Shown here in pieces: positions 20,273 through 33,545 of a DNA stretch of 35,326 bases. Each line of letters opens with the position of its first letter. Positions within the stretch are counted from its first letter, which is position 1. The translations under genes were made by a program, and so were the position numbers. The notes below the pieces were generated by a model. The model ran no database searches, was not told where the DNA came from, and saw only the letters and a program-made list of their open reading frames with translations. Source of the stretch: Candidatus Woesearchaeota archaeon CG1_02_57_44 (GTDB lineage: Archaea > Nanobdellota > Nanobdellia > Woesearchaeales > CG1-02-57-44); the NCBI GenBank assembly GCA_001871415.1, contig MNWW01000036.1, positions 1 to 35,326 on the forward strand, read 5' to 3'.

Positions 20273-21436
20273 TCATTCGGCTGCCAGGTAATCCACGGCA
20301 ATGCCGAATTCTTTGAGCATGGTCTCGGCGCGCTTGGTCAGTCCTTTCTGGCAGACAAAGAGCACCGGCATGTTTCTTTTCTGTCCAGTAGCGTATGCCA
20401 TGCCTAAATCGCCGTCATTGCCTTTGGCCTTGTTCTTGGCTTTGCAATAGTAGGTCATGGTGCCGACCGCCGAGGGGACCCTGACAATAAGGTCCAGCTC
20501 TTTTCCTTTGCGCACGCTCCTGAGCTCAGCCACGCCGACGCCCTTGCTGGCGAAGTGCGCAGTGACCTGCGCCTCGAAGCTGCCAGGGATGATGTCAGGT
20601 ATCGTTGGTGTATCAGCGGCTGCTGCGGCTGTTCCGCTGATTGCGTGTTGTCTTTTGCTCGGCTTTGGTCTTGCGGGCTTGCTCTTGGCCGCAGGAGTGG
20701 TCGCTTCTTTGTTTGTCATCGGTAGTGGCAGCTGTTCCTGGCTTTCCTTGACCGCATGCGTTGCGGATTGTGACGTTGACGCAAGAACCTCGGGCGTGTC
20801 CTGCTCGTATCTGCAATCAGGAGTCCTCGCAGAAACTGGTGTTGCGGGGGCTTTAGGGATTGCTTGCGTAGTGGGCTGCTGCTCTGGTTTCGCATCTTGC
20901 GAAGCAGATGCTACCCGCTCCTGTATCACTGCTTCTGTTGTCTCCTGCACCGGGGGCTGCATTATTTTCCGCATTGGCTCCCGTGTAGGTGCTGCCGACA
21001 AAGTGGGCGCGAGAGGATTGAGCGCGCGCAGTGCCTCATCATCATTGAGCAGGAACCATCTGAAGTAGAGCGCGCCGTCGTGCTGGAAGGGCTTGGCAAA
21101 ATCCGGGATGTTCGTGAGCGCGACGCGCTCGACCGGCTGCAGCTCAGAGGCCTTGAGCACCTTGCGCTCCAGCAGCAGATCATACGCGTGCTTATCGACG
21201 CTGCCGAGCTTGTCGCAGAAATTGCAGAGCGCTGCTTCCTGTCCGGGGATGTAGTAGAGTGGGCTGCCCCCGACCTTCAGCCGCGTGATGCGCACCAGCC
21301 CTGACGCGGCAAGCTCGCTGAGTATCGCGCCAGCGATCATGGTGTTGCTGTTCATCCTGCTGGCGATGGTCATGGGGACCGTGGGCCCGGACTGGCGGAG
21401 GATCTCCAGTGCCTGGTCGCGATGCGTCGTGGCCAT
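20273..21436 (-). CDS. Hypothetical protein: N-terminal winged-helix-like region, Pro/Ala/Thr/Lys-rich linker, C-terminal restriction-endonuclease-like domain
   Basis: GPTVPMTIA...AGAILSEL...KVGGSPLYY; FE...ELDLIV...YYCKAKNK; 4 nt downstream of endA. Confidence 0.7.
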   Translation of the reverse strand: MATTHRDQALEILRQSGPTVPMTIASRMNSNTMIAGAILSELAASGLVRITRLKVGGSPLYYIPGQEAALCNFCDKLGSVDKHAYDLLLERKVLKASELQPVERVALTNIPDFAKPFQHDGALYFRWFLLNDDEALRALNPLAPTLSAAPTREPMRKIMQPPVQETTEAVIQERVASASQDAKPEQQPTTQAIPKAPATPVSARTPDCRYEQDTPEVLASTSQSATHAVKESQEQLPLPMTNKEATTPAAKSKPARPKPSKRQHAISGTAAAAADTPTIPDIIPGSFEAQVTAHFASKGVGVAELRSVRKGKELDLIVRVPSAVGTMTYYCKAKNKAKGNDGDLGMAYATGQKRNMPVLFVCQKGLTKRAETMLKEFGIAVDYLAAE

Positions 21437-22048: not shown

Positions 22049-22942
22049 ATGCCGACCGTAACCTTCCTGGGCACAAGCTGCATGCAGCCGACCAAGGAGC
22101 GCAACCACAGCGCGCTCTTCTTCCCTCATGATACAGAGGGCATCCTCTTTGACTGTGGCGAGAACACGCAGCGTCAGCTCAAGATAGCGGGCATCAGGCC
22201 CACCAAGATAACGCGCATCTTCCTGACCCATTGGCATGGCGATCATGTGCTTGGCCTGCCCGGGCTGTTGCAGACCATGGCAGCCGCCCCCTATGTTGGG
22301 ACGCTGCACGTCTATGGTCCGAAAGGATCCAAAGAGCGCTTCGGTTATATGTTTCGCGCATTTGACTTCGACGCCAAGCTTGACCTGGTGGTCCATGACA
22401 TCGAGCCCGGCGTGGTCTGCGATGCTTCCTTGTTCGAGGTGCATGCCGCGATGCTTGACCATGGTGTGCCCTGCTTCGGGTATCGATGGGTGGAGAAAGA
22501 TAAACGGCGCATAAAGGTCGCGGCAGTCAAGAAGCTGGGCATCCCCGACGGTCCCTTGCTCGGCGAGCTGCAGCGCGGCAGGTCCATCGAGTGGAAGGGT
22601 AAGAGGGTCCCTGCTGATGAGCTGACCTTCCTGCAGAAAGGAAAGGTCATCGCCTACGTCGTGGATACAGCACCCTGCAAAGGCGCTATCGACCTCGCGC
22701 AGGGCGCGGACCTGCTCATCTGCGAGGCCGCCTATGCCAATGCCTTGGAGGACAAAGGTGAGCAGTACAAGCACCTGACCGCAAGGGACGCAGCGACCAT
22801 CGCCCGCAAGGCCGACGCGAAGCAGCTCGTGCTCACGCACTTTAGCCAGCGCTACGCATCGACTGAGGACATCGAGGAGGACGCGAAGGAGATATTTCCT
22901 GATGTCGTGTGCGCGTATGATTTCCTGAAAGTCAAGTGCTAA
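22049..22942 (+). CDS. rnz: Ribonuclease Z
   Basis: FLGTS, PTKERN, DCGE, THWHGDH, GIPDGP exosite, DT.PC, HLT, LTHFSQRY. Confidence 0.95.
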   Translation: MPTVTFLGTSCMQPTKERNHSALFFPHDTEGILFDCGENTQRQLKIAGIRPTKITRIFLTHWHGDHVLGLPGLLQTMAAAPYVGTLHVYGPKGSKERFGYMFRAFDFDAKLDLVVHDIEPGVVCDASLFEVHAAMLDHGVPCFGYRWVEKDKRRIKVAAVKKLGIPDGPLLGELQRGRSIEWKGKRVPADELTFLQKGKVIAYVVDTAPCKGAIDLAQGADLLICEAAYANALEDKGEQYKHLTARDAATIARKADAKQLVLTHFSQRYASTEDIEEDAKEIFPDVVCAYDFLKVKC

Positions 22943-22977
22943 GGCCGCAGCGATAGTCTTCTCAGGACAATAGCAGT

Positions 22978-23196
22978 TCAATCCTTCTGTGTCACCGACG
23001 AGAGCGCAAGCGCGACATCTTCCGCCTGCACCGTGCGCCGGCCTGCGTGCAGGGCGAGCGACGAGGATTTCTCAGCGACCTTTCTGCCAACAGCGACGAG
23101 ATGCGCCGCCATGGCAGCTTTCGCGTCTTCGCCTACGCGTATGCCTGGATGCGCTTCCTTGATGAACGCTTCCATTGCGTGAAGGCTTGGTTTCAT
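22978..23196 (-). CDS. Archaeal histone-fold protein
   Basis: RVGEDA...A.HAGRRTVQAEDVALA histone-fold signature; 72 aa. Confidence 0.88.
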   Translation of the reverse strand: MKPSLHAMEAFIKEAHPGIRVGEDAKAAMAAHLVAVGRKVAEKSSSLALHAGRRTVQAEDVALALSSVTQKD

Positions 23197-23340
23197 GTTG
23201 GTGTGGTCGGTGCAGGGGGTATTTTAAGGTTCGTGCCACAGAGCGAGGGAACGGGGGCAGGTGCTGGCGCATCATGGCGTGTCCTGCAGGGTGATTGCAG
23301 GGTGATAATACTTTTAAGTGGACCAGTTATTCCCTTGCTG

Positions 23341-24657
23341 ATGGCTCCGGGCATGGACTCCTCTCACGTGGATCAGATGCAGGGGTTTCTGCATTTTCTG
23401 GCAGGCCGGATCGCGAGATCAGATGCGTATCTGTTCCAGGATCTGGTCTCCGCAGGGACGCTCGCCATCCTCGAGCATGGGGGCGAATATGAGTCGTGGC
23501 GCAGCGTGTACAGGTCTGCCGACGGGCGAGCTGATGAGGAAGTGATGCTCACGCAGTTCTTCGTGCCTGTGGTGAGATATGCCATGCTTGACCAGTGCAG
23601 GGCCTGCAAGGCCCGGCCTCAATGGGGCGCAACCTTCCTCAGGGAGCAGGAGCAGGCGATGCTGGACATGGGCACATCAGATACCGCGGTAATCGCGATG
23701 CGCATGGGGCTCTCGCGTGATGAGTATCAAAGGCGCGCGCGGCTGGTTGATCCGTCTGGCACAGTATCCATCGACGATAGTGAGGCGGGCCTGCTGGATG
23801 TTGTGGGAGATGCAGATGCTGCGTATGATGCAGTCCTTGAGCACGACCAGGGCGCGCGGTATCTGCGCGGGCTCGATGCGCTGCCGGTGAGAGAGCGCAG
23901 GCTGCTCGTGGAGGTCGGTCTGAGGGGCCAGACCTTTGCCAGCATGGCGAGCAATATGAGGTTATCTCCGGGACGAGCCGACCAATTATACCAGCAAGCT
24001 AAAGACCGGATGCGTGAGCAGGTCGATGGCGCATCCAGCAGCAATGGCGCTTGCCATCATCCCAGTCTGCCCAGTTCGTTGGCGTACTCCTATGCGGGAT
24101 TCGATGAGTGGCATCCGGGTCCGGCGGCAAAAGACTTTTTCTGGCGACGGCCGATGGAATATTTCTCATCGATGATTGGCATTGATTTCTATCTTCAGCA
24201 CGCGACAAGGGACGCTTCGCTGTTGCGTCCCGCGGTCGTGGGGTACGCGGATCGTTTTGACCCCTTGGTGCATGGCACCATGGAGGCGCTGCTGCTTGAT
24301 GCGAATGGCGTCCGGGGCGAAGATGCGCGTGACGCAGTGACCGTCCATGCGAATCCGTATGGCAGGAACGATTCGTTCCTCAACATATTCGCGTTCGCAT
24401 TGGAGACCATAGCAGCGTATCAGCTCAATCCCTGGTGGCGGGGGGATGAGGCCGACGAGTCGCTCGGCCGGGCGCAGGCACTGGTGGAAGCCGTATTTGA
24501 GCGCTCAGCGCCAACAGAGGCGATAGTGCTCGCCAGCAGGCACTGCCTGGGTCTTGAGACTCGGGTGGCGGCATGGGCGCTTGGCATGCCGTATGATGCC
24601 GTGCGAAACGCAATGCTCGCCGCCCAGGACAAGGCGCAGGACTTGATGAGGGGCTGA
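23341..24657 (+). CDS. Sigma-70-family (FliA/WhiG-like) protein with a C-terminal extension ending in a second region-4-like HTH
   Basis: QDLVSAGTLAILE (region 2.2), VRYAMLDQCR (2.4), IAMRMGLSRDEY (3), LPVRERRLL...LSPGRADQLYQQAKDRMR (4). Start 23341 or 23353, after TTTTAAG at 23312-23318. Confidence 0.75.
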   Translation: MAPGMDSSHVDQMQGFLHFLAGRIARSDAYLFQDLVSAGTLAILEHGGEYESWRSVYRSADGRADEEVMLTQFFVPVVRYAMLDQCRACKARPQWGATFLREQEQAMLDMGTSDTAVIAMRMGLSRDEYQRRARLVDPSGTVSIDDSEAGLLDVVGDADAAYDAVLEHDQGARYLRGLDALPVRERRLLVEVGLRGQTFASMASNMRLSPGRADQLYQQAKDRMREQVDGASSSNGACHHPSLPSSLAYSYAGFDEWHPGPAAKDFFWRRPMEYFSSMIGIDFYLQHATRDASLLRPAVVGYADRFDPLVHGTMEALLLDANGVRGEDARDAVTVHANPYGRNDSFLNIFAFALETIAAYQLNPWWRGDEADESLGRAQALVEAVFERSAPTEAIVLASRHCLGLETRVAAWALGMPYDAVRNAMLAAQDKAQDLMRG

Positions 24658-24758
24658 GTCGCTAAAAAGTTCTGAATTCCGAACTTTCGTTATTCCATGA
24701 CGCATAACGCAATCGCATATAGTAACACATAAATACTTGCGCGCCTGCATTTTTTCTC

Positions 24759-24833
24759 ATGGTAGCTGCGTCGCACATGAGATCTGTTGGCTGTGCAGCT
24801 ACGTGCGCGACTATTATGTCGGGCACCTGGTAA
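24759..24833 (+). CDS. Putative 24-aa leader peptide MVAASHMRSVGCAATCATIMSGTW
   Basis: ATG about 29 nt after TATA-like CATAAATA (24728-24735); begins MVAAS like the cimA leader; lies in a structured 5' region. Confidence 0.55.
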   Translation: MVAASHMRSVGCAATCATIMSGTW

Positions 24834-24886
24834 CCAATAATAAAATGGTTCCCGGGTGCTGGAGATTCTTGCTAGTGCTTGGGAAC
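24762..24886 (+). promoter_or_regulatory. Structured leader with mutually exclusive hairpins (attenuator-like)
   Basis: Stems paired by hand: 24762-71/24793-802; 24803-11/24818-26; 24823-36/24846-59; 24848-62/24872-86. Confidence 0.6.
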
Positions 24887-24906
24887 TCACGAGGAGGTGG
24901 GGAAAG

Positions 24907-25218
24907 ATGGATGTATGCCACGTGTGCAGTGAGCCGGTCACAAATCCCTTGTGTCCGCACTGCCTGCACGAGACCGTACGGCAATGGGTCGAAGAAGAGG
25001 ACCAAGACATGGCGAGGAGCATCTGGCGTCTGGACGAGGTGTTCCCTGATATGGCTATGGCGTCTGTCCATTGCATCAGGTGCGGGCGTGGCGTAGAGGT
25101 CTGTCCTCATTGCTATACCAAGGAAGTCCGCGACATCCTGGGCAAGGATGAGCAGCTGCAGGCGCAGTTCACGCGCCTGTTCAATTTCCATCTTCACGCC
25201 CCGCCCAACATGGCGTGA
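24907..25218 (+). CDS. Small protein with four CxxC motifs (putative two-Zn binding)
   Basis: CHVC, CPHC, CIRC, CPHC; strong SD GGAGGTG at 24893-24899. Confidence 0.85.
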   Translation: MDVCHVCSEPVTNPLCPHCLHETVRQWVEEEDQDMARSIWRLDEVFPDMAMASVHCIRCGRGVEVCPHCYTKEVRDILGKDEQLQAQFTRLFNFHLHAPPNMA

Positions 25219-25251
25219 TCCGCTGCGAGTTGCCTGCGATTGATGCGAGGC

Positions 25252-25281
25252 GCGGTCTTTAGCGGCCGCTGTTTTTTCTTT
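25252..25281 (+). terminator. Hairpin plus T-tract downstream of the CxxC gene
   Basis: GCGGTC-tttagc-GGCCGC followed by TGTTTTTTCTTT. Confidence 0.55.
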
Positions 25282-25503
25282 ATGATCGCGCGAGGCGATG
25301 GTTAAGGTGTGGGACTTCTGTGTATGCGTCTCATAGGTGCTTCACGCGGTGGACTGTGCACATGCTGAGCTGCTGTCAGCGTCAAGCATCTTTCGCTTGT
25401 GGGGCAGGTTCGGCAGCCTCTGCCTTGCCCCTGCCCTGCGCCATGCTGCAGGGCGCGGGAACAGACCTTCATGAAGTCAGGTTCTTTTTCCATCATCCCG
25501 AAA

Positions 25504-25512
25504 TTATATAAA
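25504..25512 (+). promoter_or_regulatory. TATA box of the cimA leader transcript
   Basis: TTATATAAA centred about 28 nt upstream of the leader ATG (25536), the spacing expected for a leaderless archaeal mRNA. Confidence 0.65.
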
Positions 25513-25535
25513 CTCCCTATGCATTCCCAATAACT

Positions 25536-25613
25536 ATGGTCGCGGCATCAATCGTGGCATGGTCTGTTCCATCTGCCTGCGGCTCTGCCATTATCGGCAT
25601 TATTATTCGTTAG
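25536..25613 (+). CDS. Ile-rich leader peptide of cimA: MVAASIVAWSVPSACGSAIIGIIIR
   Basis: Translated by hand; five Ile codons in the last seven (ATT ATC GGC ATT ATT ATT CGT TAG); ends 32 nt before the cimA ATG. Confidence 0.75.
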   Translation: MVAASIVAWSVPSACGSAIIGIIIR

Positions 25614-25645
25614 AGCAGCCAGACTTCTGGGCTGCGGTGGTAAAC

Positions 25646-27220
25646 ATGGTACAGATAGCAGTGTATGACACAACGCTTCGGGACGGGGCGCAGAGCCCGC
25701 ATGTGCGCTTTGGCATCAAGGACAAGCTGACCCTCCTGCGGATGCTCGATGACTATGGTATCGACTACGTTGAGCTGGGTTATCCTGCAGCGTCCGAGGC
25801 AGAGATGAAGGTCTTTCAGGAGGGCTCAAAGCTAAACCTTGCGACCAATATCGTCGCCTTCGGTTCTACGCATCGCATGGGTGTGGCGGCGAAGGATGAC
25901 ATAGGCATGCATGCTCTTGTAAAATCAGGCGCGAAGGTGGCGTGCATCTTCGGCAAGGCAAGGCCGAGTCATGTGAGCCTGCAACTCAAGGCGAGCCTTG
26001 ATGACAACTTGGCAGCCATCGCTGATAGCGTCTCTTATCTCAAGTCCCAGGGCATGACGGTCTTCTTTGACGCAGAGCATTTTTTTGATGGCTGCGGGGA
26101 GGACAAGGCCTACGCGTTCTCCTGCCTCAACGTGGCGGCTGACGCTGGCGCGCACACGCTCATCCTTTGTGACACGTCCGGCGGAGCCATGCCCCCTGAT
26201 GTGGAGCTGCTGACCCGTGAAGCGGTCAAGGCATTCCCTGGTACAGTCATCGGCATCCACTGCCACAATGACTGTGGCCTTGGCGTGGCCAACACGATGG
26301 CAGCGGTGCGTGCTGGCGCAAGCCACGTGCAGGGTACTATCAACGGCTTTGGTGAGCGAACAGGCAATGCTGACCTTTGCCAGGTGCTGCCCTTGCTGGG
26401 CCTTAAGCTCGGCTGCGCGCTGGGCACAAGAGTCTGCAAGCCAGGTATCAAGCTGAGCAAGACCAAATCCGTATCAGATCGCATCTTCTCGCTGGCTAAT
26501 GTCAAGCCGGACAAGAGCAAGCCATTCGTGGGCGATTATGCCTTCATGCACAAGGCGGGCATGCACGTTGACGCCATACGCAAGGGCGCGTCCTACGAGC
26601 ACATAGCGCCGGCTGCTGTGGGCAATGATACATACTTTGTGCTCTCTGAGCTGTCAGGCAAGGCTAACGTCCTGGCGCTGCTCGAGAAGCATGGCATCGT
26701 CGTTGATAAGCAGGATCCGCGTGTCAAGGCCCTCCTCATGGACGTGGAGCGCATGGAAGCAGAAGGCTATGGCATCAGTGGTCTTCCCGCGGAGCATGAG
26801 CTGCTGATAGCCAAGCATTTCAAGGCGCTGCCCTTCCAGCTGGACTCCTGGCGCATCGTGACTGAGCACATGCATGGCGAGTTCTCTGAGTGCATGATGA
26901 CAGGCGTGCTTGATGGGGCAAAGATTGAGGCCTTTGTCTCCCTGGATGACAACGGTCCGGTTGACGCCATGTTCGTCGCGCTCAAGAAGCTGCTGGCGAA
27001 ATATCCTGTCAGGGGTATATCGCTCATCAACTACAAGGTCATGATAGCGCAGGACAAGGGCCCGGAATCAAGCGTGCGCGTCTACATTGAGTTCAAGGAT
27101 AATGGTCATGAGTGGGCGACCGCTGGCGTATCGACCAATATCCTGGAAGCGAGCATTGAGGCGCTGACCAAGGGATTTACCTACCACCTCCACAGGAAAC
27201 AAAGCAACGTGTCGACATAG
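25646..27220 (+). CDS. cimA: Citramalate synthase (LeuA-related, bacterial-type CimA)
   Basis: DTTLRDGAQ, FDAEHFFDG, LCDT.GG, HCHND.G, NG.GERTGN, HKAGMH, SELSGK, C-terminal regulatory domain with GPVDA and GVSTNILEAS. Confidence 0.85.
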   Translation: MVQIAVYDTTLRDGAQSPHVRFGIKDKLTLLRMLDDYGIDYVELGYPAASEAEMKVFQEGSKLNLATNIVAFGSTHRMGVAAKDDIGMHALVKSGAKVACIFGKARPSHVSLQLKASLDDNLAAIADSVSYLKSQGMTVFFDAEHFFDGCGEDKAYAFSCLNVAADAGAHTLILCDTSGGAMPPDVELLTREAVKAFPGTVIGIHCHNDCGLGVANTMAAVRAGASHVQGTINGFGERTGNADLCQVLPLLGLKLGCALGTRVCKPGIKLSKTKSVSDRIFSLANVKPDKSKPFVGDYAFMHKAGMHVDAIRKGASYEHIAPAAVGNDTYFVLSELSGKANVLALLEKHGIVVDKQDPRVKALLMDVERMEAEGYGISGLPAEHELLIAKHFKALPFQLDSWRIVTEHMHGEFSECMMTGVLDGAKIEAFVSLDDNGPVDAMFVALKKLLAKYPVRGISLINYKVMIAQDKGPESSVRVYIEFKDNGHEWATAGVSTNILEASIEALTKGFTYHLHRKQSNVST

Positions 27221-30976: not shown

Positions 30977-31025
30977 CCGCTTGATATTATATGTTCTTTC
31001 AAGAATGCGTTGCTTGTTTCCTTGC

Positions 31026-32303
31026 CTACTTGCTCGTCGAGTAGAAGAGGCGAAGGTAGGTGTTGTCTGATATTCTCACATATTTCTTTCGCCTGTCTTT
31101 GTCGGACGTTGTTATAGTGATCAGCCCCTTATCGAGAAGATCCTTTATTGGATGTCTGAGATTGGTTGGGAGTATCCCGGTGCGTTGCGCCAAATCTGTC
31201 ATGGTTATCTTTCCGGTGACATCGAGCAGTATGGTAATGATCTTGGTTTCGTGCTGTGTCAGTGTGGAGAATATTGCCTGTTTCTCCTTCTCCTGCACGG
31301 CTTTTATCTCATGCATGGTTATCTTGCAGGGGGCTTGCTGCTCTGTCGAGAGCATGGTGTCTTCCAGGACTTTGAAGGCGAATCTGATGTTGTTTAATGT
31401 TTCATAGAGCCAGGTCACTGTTGTTTCTTCATACGGAGACAGATAGGTCCCTTCTGGAATCGTGAGTGAATTGCAGCGTTTTTTCAGTATCTCCAGCACA
31501 TGGTATGAATTCAGCGGTCCTAGGACAATTGGTTGAGAAAAAGTACTGTGCGCCTGTGGGTATGTCTCCAATGCGCCCAAGCATGAAGGTGGCCCCATGA
31601 ATATAAAATGAATGCCTTCTATCTGGAGGTAGTCGCGTATCATGCGGAAAAAATCAGCTAGGTGCATGCTGTCAATGTTCTCCAAGTTGTCATACGGCAG
31701 TATCAGCTGCTTTCCTTGTGCGAGGAGTTCCTGGCTCAGTGCACGGAGTAACTCTTCATATATTTCCGGACTGATTGCTCCAGGAACGCTCTTTGTTGAG
31801 GAGACTCCTACTCCTGTTCCTGCGATGCTCCCTTGCACTGCCTTCTGTGTCCCGATAGCGACATAATCGCCGATTCTGGCGAGAGCAGGGAGCTTGAGCC
31901 CGTGCTGGTCCCATCGGAAGATTAAACTGGAAGTATAGACTGCAGACAGGGTTGCCAGAAGGAATTCCTTGGATCCCCAAGCGGATTGGGCCTTTATTTC
32001 GGTCGATGTTGTGACGTGATGCGCTTTGGATTGTCGTTCGATGCAGAGCTTCCATCTGATATAGTTGGAGAAGGTTGTCTTGCCTACGCCAAAATTGCCG
32101 CTGATGAATGTCCGTGTGTTGTTGGATGAACAGATGATCCTCAGTAATTTTGTGGTTTCTTCTGTTCTACCTGAAAAGACCTTTCCGATGGGCAGAGAAC
32201 TCAAGAGGGTCGTGGGGCCGGTCGTGAATGGGCTTTCACGAAGTCCATACTTGGGCCAGACTGAATGCGCATCCTCGGGAGAAGTTTCTTCCTGAATTGC
32301 CAT
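31026..32303 (-). CDS. P-loop ATPase with C-terminal MarR-like winged helix
   Basis: FSGRTEE, Walker A GNFGVGKTT, Walker B LILPYDNLE, ILKKR, C-terminal LAQRTGI...LLDKGLI...DRRKKYVRI. Confidence 0.8.
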   Translation of the reverse strand: MAIQEETSPEDAHSVWPKYGLRESPFTTGPTTLLSSLPIGKVFSGRTEETTKLLRIICSSNNTRTFISGNFGVGKTTFSNYIRWKLCIERQSKAHHVTTSTEIKAQSAWGSKEFLLATLSAVYTSSLIFRWDQHGLKLPALARIGDYVAIGTQKAVQGSIAGTGVGVSSTKSVPGAISPEIYEELLRALSQELLAQGKQLILPYDNLENIDSMHLADFFRMIRDYLQIEGIHFIFMGPPSCLGALETYPQAHSTFSQPIVLGPLNSYHVLEILKKRCNSLTIPEGTYLSPYEETTVTWLYETLNNIRFAFKVLEDTMLSTEQQAPCKITMHEIKAVQEKEKQAIFSTLTQHETKIITILLDVTGKITMTDLAQRTGILPTNLRHPIKDLLDKGLITITTSDKDRRKKYVRISDNTYLRLFYSTSK

Positions 32304-32489
32304 GTGCTGTAGTATTCCACAGTGATATAAATAGTTATGCATTTACATATAATTATTTAGTTTTATATAATGATATTATTCTATATCATAATCGCATTAT
32401 TTTCCTGGCTTGGTGCTGTATATTATTTTTACGTATCAAATCACCACTTTAGAGTAATATTCTTAAAGTCTTCCGAGTTTTCGCAGCCC

Positions 32490-33545
32490 ATGCAGGACGT
32501 CCAGATACTCCACGAGCAGCCATATCCAAGTATGGCCCGGCGCGATGACCTTGAGCGCCTGCTCGATACCATCCCACAAGTCGAGCACGACAACCCTGCG
32601 CGTCCTGAATGGCCGCCAGCGCCGCAGCGCGAGATAGACCTTGCGACATATGGCTGCGGTGCAATCATTGTCCAGGACGAGTCGGTCAATCCGACAGGTA
32701 CGCACAAGGCCCGCTCCGCGCACGAGACCGGTCCGGTCTGGCATAGGGGTTGGGCAGAGCGTATGTGGCTGAGTGGTGTGGATGTCACCCCTTTTCCCAC
32801 CATGAGCATCATCACCACGGGCAATGCTGGCGCCGCCATTGCGCAGGCGCATCAGCAGTATGGCCTGCCGCCCATCCGATGCCTGATGGACAGGGCAACG
32901 CCGGCATCCAACACCGACCGTCTCATCGGGCTTGGCGCGTCAGTCTATCTGACCGACCTTTCTGTAGGAGTCCTCGCTGCCGACGACATCCTGGCGATGA
33001 CCAGCAACAGAGAAGGTCTTGACCTGACCAGCGCGCGTATCGTCGATCGACAGCGTACCTTCTATGACTGGCTTGCGCATGAGTCGTTCAATCATTTTGC
33101 TGACGCGAAGAACGGTTGTCACATCCTGCTGCCCTACGGCTCTGGAGATCTATTCGCGAATCTCCTCTACTGGCAGGCGGAGAACCTGCGTCATGGCCCG
33201 GACCCGCGGCTCCAGATACCGCTCAGCACCCTCGCGTCAATCAACATCATGGCTGCCCAACCAGGTTCCCCCGCAAGTGCCGCCAGATACCTGACAGGAT
33301 GCAAGCCTTTTGAGTACTTCGCCTCTAATGATATTGATGGCGCAATCCGCGCAGGCCTCACCGGATCAAGGACAGGGATATACGCGGTGGATGAGCAGGA
33401 GATAGCGCACGGCGCACAGACCCTTGCGCAATTCATGCGCACGAGCGAGAGCGGTGCCGCGGGCGTCGCATTGTACATGGCGCTCTGGGAACAGCAGGCG
33501 TTCGTGCGTCATGATGATATTCTTGCGATAAATACCGGCGGTTAG
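32490..33545 (+). CDS. Fold-type II PLP-dependent enzyme (threonine synthase/dehydratase superfamily)
   Basis: DESVNPTGTHKAR (PLP lysine), TTGNAG, PYGSGD, SESGAAG. Confidence 0.78.
   Translation: MQDVQILHEQPYPSMARRDDLERLLDTIPQVEHDNPARPEWPPAPQREIDLATYGCGAIIVQDESVNPTGTHKARSAHETGPVWHRGWAERMWLSGVDVTPFPTMSIITTGNAGAAIAQAHQQYGLPPIRCLMDRATPASNTDRLIGLGASVYLTDLSVGVLAADDILAMTSNREGLDLTSARIVDRQRTFYDWLAHESFNHFADAKNGCHILLPYGSGDLFANLLYWQAENLRHGPDPRLQIPLSTLASINIMAAQPGSPASAARYLTGCKPFEYFASNDIDGAIRAGLTGSRTGIYAVDEQEIAHGAQTLAQFMRTSESGAAGVALYMALWEQQAFVRHDDILAINTGG

Follow-up and report, generated by a model that had tools for sequence, protein, structure and literature searches.

Bacterial transcription initiation is defined by sigma factors; archaea use TBP, TFB and TFE. 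Sigma-70 genes (fam00359) have been described in DPANN archaea, being especially prevalent in Woesearchaeota, and that report (Castelle et al. 2021, Front Microbiol, PMC8204110) rules out mis-binning, records no anti-sigma factors in DPANN and calls the mechanism unclear. Such genes are kept in hundreds of DPANN genomes; full-text literature searches turned up no functional study of them. Here we analyzed a stretch of 35,326 nucleotides (hereafter the window; contig MNWW01000036.1, positions 1 to 35,326 of the forward strand) from Candidatus Woesearchaeota archaeon CG1_02_57_44 (assembly GCA_001871415.1), which carries on its + strand a sigma-like gene at 23341..24657, stop codon included, encoding the 438-aa protein P0001. 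This protein very probably goes back to a bacterial group-3 (FliA/WhiG-like) sigma-70 family protein, from which it has diverged fast in the archaeal line, and the role we favor for it, at a probability of roughly 0.45, is that of a free-standing DNA-binding regulator.

P0001 shares with the published DPANN genes the status of a sigma-70 homologue amid archaeal genes in a Woesearchaeota-type genome; the lack of a nearby anti-sigma gene, for which no directed search was made, and the presence of TBP, TFB and TFE are further points of likeness, fam00359 being compared by description. Lying on a contig with informative archaeal genes in a DPANN/Woesearchaeota lineage, it belongs among the DPANN sigma-70-like genes. 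These genes are already in print; new here is an extreme, diverged member with a private C-terminal half. Most members of the same order retain near-canonical motifs, from which P0001 is far more diverged, and the C-terminal extension that it shares with a paralogue was, but for one marginal match, not found elsewhere in the order sample. The nearest bacterial family is FliA/WhiG sigma-28 (TIGR02479; PDB 6pmi, 9wsm, 1rp3 and 6pfj), with which P0001 has in common the collinear regions 2-3-4 and two FliA-type motifs, VRYAMLDQCR versus RIRGAMLDELR and SPGRADQLYQQA versus SESRVSQLHSQA. Measured against that family, P0001 reaches 26.9 bits where the cut-off is 189.6, contains a 12-residue insertion in region 2 and continues into a 204-residue extension. 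FliA/WhiG factors govern a flagellar or developmental regulon in bacteria, with a FlgM/RsiG-type anti-sigma partner; no bacterial core RNA polymerase (RNAP) was found in the genome of P0001.

Profile searches related P0001 to sigma factors. Ten NCBIfam families matched at E<=10, nine of them sigma factors and one the sigma-like PhyR anti-anti-sigma family. The best match, TIGR02937 (E 2e-8), covered aa 11-227 with 34.0 bits, short of its cut-off of 42.9; the FliA_WhiG profile (E 3.6e-6) aligned aa 32-228 with its positions 26-223 of 224. Pfam returned Sigma70_r4_2 (18.9 bits, gathering threshold 25.7, E 1.2e-3, aa 175-224), Sigma70_r4 (16.2 bits versus 24.1, E 7.8e-3) and Sigma70_r2 (13.2 bits versus 24, aa 10-55). 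Thus, the Pfam and FliA_WhiG scans proposed by an initial annotation of this DNA yielded collinear sigma matches, but every score lay below its cut-off and region 2 was weak when taken alone. Since these cut-offs are missed, we term P0001 a diverged homologue, that is sigma-like, rather than a curated Sigma-70 member. A HMMER scan of 1.84 billion representatives gave eight proteins at E<=1e-3, one of which was the query itself. The seven others (204-278 aa, 27-36% identity) all belong to the sigma-70 family by NCBIfam, five being matched best by FliA/WhiG models and two by TIGR02937, and they align from P0001 aa 18-88 to aa 226-243. Among PDB sequences the best match was FliA (6pmi_F, E 0.017), again with VRYAMLDQCR opposite RIRGAMLDELR. 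Word-index searches with P0001 and with its paralogue P0002 returned no homologue beyond the query's own entry, and P0001 found no match at E<=0.01 in 40 relatives. A seed profile built from P0001's own matches gave it 94.9 bits, a circular result that was not used as evidence.

An independent hhalign test was made against 18 same-order sigma-like sequences, for whose selection the FliA_WhiG profile, rather than P0001, had served. Regions 3-4 (aa 111-227) matched at E 1.7e-4, and region 2 alone (aa 1-112) at E 0.068 in the correct register, with FQDLVSAGTLAILE opposite DLIQEGNLGLMKA. In a multiple alignment with sigma factors (A1), P0001 retains the near-invariant A21, G39, L181, R212 and Q215, together with D34 and L35 of region 2.2. 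The same alignment revealed that the 12-residue insertion, at about aa 55-66, separates region 2.2 from region 2.3, and showed a much eroded region 2.3/2.4 motif (FFVPVVRYAML versus TYAxxRIRGAIL) whose helix holds a proline. Accordingly, three domains can be delineated on the + strand: a region-2-like domain (aa 7-92, 23359..23616), defined by the TIGR02937 and FliA_WhiG alignments, the phmmer matches that begin at aa 18-19, A1 and structure prediction; a region-3-like domain (aa 94-136, 23620..23748), defined by A1, the hhalign match of aa 111-227 and structure prediction; and a region-4 helix-turn-helix (HTH) domain (aa 158-233, 23812..24039), defined by the sub-cut-off Pfam r4_2 and r4 matches, residues L181, R212 and Q215, and superposition. 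Judged from sequence, regions 2, 3 and 4 are collinear with the family profiles and with bona fide members over residues 1-233, FliA/WhiG being the nearest type, which agrees with the order given by the initial annotation. The sequence-based case for a sigma origin of P0001 is solid, and its weakest part is region 2.

The gene itself is native to the archaeon. Its open frame spans 23047-24657, and the ATG at 23341, chosen as the first start with a sensible upstream region, yields the 438-aa protein. Public gene calls contain an identical 438-aa P0001; a 502-aa second member of its cluster has the same sequence, its start having been placed farther upstream. The initial annotation had assigned the sigma domain set to 23341-24030, which has the correct gene start but covers only residues 1-230 and misses the C-terminal 204 residues. 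The peptides it quoted are all present in the order given: DLVSAGTLAILE at aa 34-45, VPVVRYAMLDQCR at 75-87, IAMRMGLSRDEY at 118-129, VSID at 142-145, LPVRERR at 181-187 and LSPGRADQLYQQAKDRMR at 208-225. The pattern of GC content at the three codon positions (GC1/GC2/GC3) is the same in both halves of P0001 and resembles that of the neighbors, with a GC3 of 0.68-0.69. The in-frame codon index is 0.64-0.66, compared with 0.59-0.74 for the neighbors and 0.50-0.58 for its own off-frames. A TATA-like box precedes the gene, as the initial annotation had noted: TTTTAA lies at 23312-23317 (+), 29 bases 5' of the ATG. Such a hexamer occurs at -25 to -31 in 6 of 22 window genes, among them the divergent histone gene; a hexamer at this distance is expected of leaderless archaeal mRNAs. 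The intact frame, host-like codon usage and archaeal-type promoter together indicate that P0001 is natively encoded in a DPANN archaeon.

The surroundings of the gene agree with a native origin. Pfam searches of 27 open reading frames (ORFs) in the window identified Cdc6, both PolD subunits (DP1 and DP2), FEN1, the tRNA-splicing endonuclease EndA, an RNase Z-type metallo-beta-lactamase, an archaeal histone, TBP and MCM, which bears out the archaeal flanks (histone, rnz, tbp, mcm) already recognized. Both gene borders are bridged at >=99% identity by contigs from four runs of four other studies (groundwater/aquifer, 2017, possibly one campaign), two possible source runs having been excluded. 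The 5' border is spanned by X3 (22589-23385), X4 (22725-23887) and X6 (23284-23545), and the 3' border by X5 (23734-24701), X4 (24121-24747) and X3 (24331-25969). These contigs showed no joints, indels or loose ends and 0-1 differing letters, which speaks against the chimeric assembly about which the initial annotation had been cautious. Hence archaeal neighbors, host-like codons, an archaeal-style promoter and bridged borders all speak for native archaeal encoding. The genome is a 1.53-Mb, 77-contig metagenome bin, 82% complete with 0.1% contamination. Its archaeal RNAP subunit Rpo1N shares 63-76% identity with 80 public records, of which 35 are labeled Woesearchaeota, 16 Nanoarchaeota/-ia/-um and 3 'archaeon', the other 26 being third-party bins labeled 'uncultured Methanosarcinales'.

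Structure prediction is in line with a sigma module at the N-terminus. The AlphaFold2 (AF2) model of full-length P0001, computed from the 27 rows of A1 with sigma factors included, has a mean predicted local distance difference test score (pLDDT) of 72.4. Within aa 1-233 the block means are 79-97 except at the region 3-4 linker (aa 147-159). Region 2 is modeled as helices 7-27, 32-45, 47-57 and 66-89 (pLDDT 79-95), and region 3 as helices 94-110, 115-121 and 126-136 (pLDDT 80-96). Foldseek returned seven PDB matches at E<=1e-3, and the matches listed at ranks 1-50 were all sigma chains, including SigD, SigB, sigma-28, WhiG and sigma-S. Superimposing the model on sigma-28 (9wsm_F) with VIA-align gave a Z of 10.8 with 216 residues aligned across model residues 3-234, which provides the overlay suggested earlier. 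Region 4 of the model superimposes on solved sigma-4 domains with a root-mean-square deviation of 1.0-3.4 Å and a Z of 9.5-11.3. As far as modeling goes, P0001 is predicted to contain the helical folds of sigma-2, sigma-3 and sigma-4.

The C-terminal extension (aa 235-438, 24043..24654, +) is collinear with the C-terminal part of a paralogue, P0002, and helical over aa 345-438. P0002 lies on contig C53:64078-65355 (895-2565 of locus L002) as a 557-aa frame, of which the called gene of 486 aa is P0010. It is a clear sigma and has the architecture of P0001, in which the extension follows a FliA-like sigma module. It differs in passing curated cut-offs and in having about 70-100 extra N-terminal residues, and overall identity between the two is 20-25%. 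The cut-offs exceeded are those of TIGR02937 (77.5 bits versus 42.9), Pfam r4 (61.1 bits) and Pfam r2 (32.1 bits); FliA_WhiG, at 108.1 bits, stays under 189.6. A BLASTP alignment of the two proteins covers aa 118-437 of P0001 (E 4e-10), and since it reaches aa 437, the extension must be common to both. Their alignment over the extension (A2) contains 47 invariant columns. The neighbors of P0002 are sugar-type oxidoreductase genes, a diverged PolB (family-B DNA polymerase) gene, and SRAP and HEPN genes.

Several weak signals relate the end of this extension to sigma region 4. In the full-length AF2 model, aa 235-344 have a pLDDT below 50 and hence no confident model, while aa 351-438 reach 72-88 and are all helical; helices 369-388, 391-402, 407-414 and 418-437 echo the helix pattern of the N-terminal sigma-4 domain. 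Folded alone from the two-row alignment, the extension gave an unusable model (pLDDT 44.5). The P0001 extension matched nothing in Pfam or NCBIfam. The equivalent part of P0002 had nine weak NCBIfam matches (E 1.4e-3 to 0.14), each with the sigma-4 portion of an extracytoplasmic function (ECF) sigma or PhyR model, and reached 24.5 bits with Pfam PhyR_sigma-like against a cut-off of 27. Aligning the two-row extension with 25 sigma sequences by hhalign placed its last 60 residues on region 4 (E 0.01, probability 4%). A structure search of the ESM Atlas returned ECF or sigma-4 clusters in 10 of 10 rows for both paralogues. On models with a mean pLDDT of 0.50, the template modeling (TM) scores were 0.41-0.49 (P0001) and 0.30-0.41 (P0010); feature scores for sigma-4 clusters were 0.90-0.92 and 0.95, respectively. 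The P0002-extension matches and the Atlas clusters of both paralogues hint at a likeness to the PhyR sigma-like domain and the ECF (group 4) sigma factors, as leads rather than proof, for all scores are sub-threshold (TM 0.30-0.49); PhyR, moreover, is fused to a receiver domain, whereas P0001 has no receiver and, sigma regions apart, no other Pfam domain at E<=10. We consider it probable that the extension ends in a second sigma-4-like HTH, and possible, though doubtful, that the whole extension is a degenerate ECF-like module. A recent internal duplication was discarded, as the extension did not match P0001's own sigma module (hhalign E 0.48). With a third, ECF-like sigma gene of this genome, the extension gave an hhalign match of no more than 32 columns at a probability of 0.3%.

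That third gene is located on contig C40:45336-45851 (1468-2235 of locus L025, - strand), with 40.1-40.9 bits for TIGR02937; by eye, genes for a putative Rpo7 (E'), a PIN-domain protein and a class I CCA-adding enzyme were identified near it. The genome therefore holds three sigma-like genes in all: P0001, P0002 and the gene on C40. P0001 is no isolated oddity: two other copies lie in its genome, such genes occur widely, and they were published in 2021 (PMC8204110). The FliA_WhiG profile at E<=1e-3 matched in 109 of the 301 order genomes sampled (83 of 222 high-quality ones; 103 of 295 when flagged unpublished genomes are left aside) and in 133 of the 301 sampled from the phylum (131 of 299 likewise). 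The family cut-off was exceeded in 1/301 and 0/301 genomes, respectively. In the controls, all 10 bacterial genomes were positive and 0 of 4 archaeal model genomes. The order members fall into two types in A1, RpoD-like near-canonical and FliA-like. RpoD-like copies carry the motifs NLRLVVSIAKKY, DLIQEGNxGL, STYATWWIRQAI and TRERIRQIE. In 16 of 18 ORFs of published genomes the sigma module ends <=27 residues from the ORF end; extra sequence in these ORFs is N-terminal, in contrast to the C-terminal extension of the P0001/P0002 pair. A search of the remaining 300 order genomes for this extension gave a single marginal match (E 2e-3).

The RpoD-like modules deserve a remark of their own. At loci L006, L009, L010, L014, L017 and L018 their motifs of regions 1.2, 2, 3 and 4 are nearly canonical. 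They occupy the C-terminus of frames of 380-730 residues and sometimes occur in tandem, with two in L010 and two in L008. For archaea that lack a bacterial RNAP, conservation of this strength is a puzzle in its own right.

Phylogenetic analysis was less informative. The branch of P0001 measures 2.96 changes per column, where the median is 1.18, and the tree does not fix its placement relative to P0002. With so long a branch, the tree lends no support to a separate transfer of this copy; the inference of the initial annotation had been horizontal acquisition. The grouping of P0001 with its own best matches P0003 and P0004 (support 84/87) arises by construction and says nothing about a donor.

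The transcription machinery of the genome is archaeal. The Rpo1N model matched one locus, on contig C26, with 1200.5 bits. No bacterial RNAP was found in this 82% complete genome, the beta-prime model matching the Rpo1N locus only and below its cut-off. With TBP, TFB and two TFE-alpha-like loci, the genome has the full set for normal initiation. A sigma-70 superfamily model also gave a weak match (E 1.8e-4) at contig C20:9666-9773, within the second cyclin repeat region of TFB, a warning that weak HTH-level sigma matches in archaea can arise from TFB.

These observations enable us to propose a putative role for P0001. In bacteria, region 2 is the main core-binding and DNA-melting part of a sigma factor. 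The HTH domains of P0001 are its best kept parts, an extra HTH-like unit seems to have been added, region 2 is the most eroded, and TBP, TFB and TFE are complete; this combination makes a DNA-binding regulator the most likely role. P0001 would act as a free-standing, multi-HTH regulator of archaeal TBP/TFB-dependent promoters, contacting DNA through its sigma-4, sigma-3 and C-terminal HTH units, and would not serve as a promoter-specificity subunit of RNAP. The retained sigma-4 recognition-helix positions R212 and Q215 count for such a role. A possible operator is a tandem direct repeat, GCAGGGTGAT(T)GCAGGGTGAT, with a period of 11, at 23286-23306 (+) directly 5' of the TATA-like box. It sits within the 144 bases that separate P0001 from the divergent histone gene, and its 21-mer occurs once in the 1.53-Mb genome. 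The 10-mer GCAGGGTGAT has 16 genomic copies, at the 95th-99th percentile of 10-mers of the same composition. As a regulon motif it was discarded, since the copies lie mostly within coding sequence and their number does not exceed the composition expectation.

Several points weigh against this proposal. The analysis turned up no DNA target, binding site or regulon; the sole candidate is the promoter repeat, which occurs nowhere else in the genome. AF2 still predicts a fold for region 2, which a pure DNA binder would not require. P0001 lies below every curated Pfam and NCBIfam family cut-off, and because A1 contained sigma factors, the sigma fold of the model shows consistency and not independent proof. 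The sigma-4 signals of the extension are weak as well (probability 4%, TM 0.41-0.49, no NCBIfam match of its own). Finally, no orthologue of P0001 was found outside this genome in public calls, 40 relatives or 1.84 billion representatives, and purifying selection is for this reason not measurable. P0001 is thus one data point, an extreme lineage-specific variant that combines a sigma module with a private C-terminal half and is duplicated within its genome. It makes a less attractive test case than the better-conserved P0002 or the near-canonical RpoD-like copies of related genomes.

The alternative that survives best, unlikely as it is, regards P0001 as an evolutionary remnant: a sigma-like duplicate that drifts with no function, either still open by chance or only recently released from selection. 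The long branch, the curated cut-offs missed throughout and the lack of an orthologue in the 40 relatives and the 1.84 billion representatives would all suit such a gene, and the better-conserved P0002 could carry the function. On the other hand, the 438-codon frame is intact, with codon usage and GC1/GC2/GC3 like those of the neighbors in both halves, and the TATA-like box stands at a normal distance. Furthermore, the invariant columns in common with P0002 run across the whole extension, and the sequence is identical in the contigs of four other studies.

It is quite unlikely that P0001 instead binds the archaeal RNAP, for example the clamp coiled-coil of Rpo1N through its region-2-like domain, as an accessory or alternative promoter-specificity factor in competition or cooperation with TFE and Spt4/5. 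Region 2 is the least conserved part of the protein by both Pfam and hhalign, interrupted by the insertion and carrying a proline in the 2.3/2.4 helix; the TBP/TFB/TFE set is full; and literature searches turned up no published contact between a sigma factor and an archaeal RNAP. What favors contact with the polymerase is that the sigma-2-like domain is predicted to fold with D34, L35 and the near-invariant G39 retained, that sigma-like genes are kept so widely in the order (109/301) and the phylum (133/301), and that the C40 paralogue adjoins an Rpo7 gene, as read by eye. The many near-canonical region 2 motifs of order members also suggest a retained protein partner. Co-folding Rpo1N aa 1-340 (alignment A4, 24 rows) with P0001 aa 1-112 (A1) scored 0.00 against a mark of 0.32; run without controls, it counts as evidence neither way.

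The sigma-like domain of PhyR binds an anti-sigma factor. By analogy, the two sigma-like modules of P0001 could pair with, titrate or sequester a sigma-like paralogue or another partner, a form of protein-protein mimicry that we regard as improbable. It is in keeping with the PhyR_sigma-like match of the P0002 extension, an NCBIfam PhyR match and the three sigma-like paralogues of one genome; and given that PMC8204110 records no anti-sigma factors in DPANN, control would have to work otherwise. The PhyR matches are, however, sub-cut-off and confined to the paralogue, and Pfam found no receiver or other partner-switching domain in P0001. Nor is a candidate partner gene conserved nearby, for the zinc-ribbon gene downstream has no sigma-like neighbor in 9 of 9 other loci.

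A bolder and very improbable scheme would have P0001 and P0002 act as tandem-sigma proteins, each a group-3 module plus a degenerate ECF-like module, which dock on the archaeal RNAP clamp and provide a second, sigma-type promoter selection beside TBP/TFB. If true, the bacterial and archaeal ways of initiation would here be combined in one functioning hybrid.

P0001 might also act on a foreign polymerase, whether viral or the bacterial RNAP of a host or partner cell, DPANN archaea being predicted symbionts. Such a role is highly improbable. One paper (PMC12647753) does annotate rpoS-like genes in DPANN viruses. Nevertheless, a viral contig collection contained no relative of P0001 or P0002, the gene lies on a core chromosomal stretch whose synteny of zinc-ribbon, TBP and MCM genes is common to relatives, and its N-terminus shows no obvious secretion signal, as judged by eye without a predictor. 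Last, an assembly or binning artefact that joined a bacterial fragment to archaeal DNA is barely credible even in a 77-contig metagenome bin that is 82% complete, in view of the contigs of four other studies that cross both borders, the neighbor-like composition and codon usage, the contamination estimate of 0.1%, and the two further sigma-like genes on other contigs beside archaeal genes (PolB for one; by eye, Rpo7 and a putative class I CCA-adding enzyme for the other).

Downstream of P0001, by 199 bases, a gene at 24907-25218 (+) encodes a small zinc-ribbon-like protein of 103 aa with four CxxC pairs (a double ribbon). Conserved in 41 of 151 order genomes, it adjoins TBP in 2 of 9 other loci and, in one of these two, MCM as well. 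As an anti-sigma-like partner it was rejected, being widespread but without a sigma-like neighbor in any of the nine other loci. The loci lacking a sigma-like gene indicate that P0001 sits at the edge of a conserved core of zinc-ribbon, TBP and MCM genes and is lineage-specific at this site.

Two further features of the window were observed. Beside EndA, a 387-aa ORF at 20273-21436 (-) had no Pfam match and contains a long low-complexity middle part rich in Pro, Ala, Thr and Ser. At 31026-32342 (-), a KAP-family P-loop NTPase is fused to a MarR-type winged helix; the segment from about 31000 to 33000 has a GC content of 0.48-0.52 versus about 0.58 and AT-rich intergenic regions, and may be a small island.

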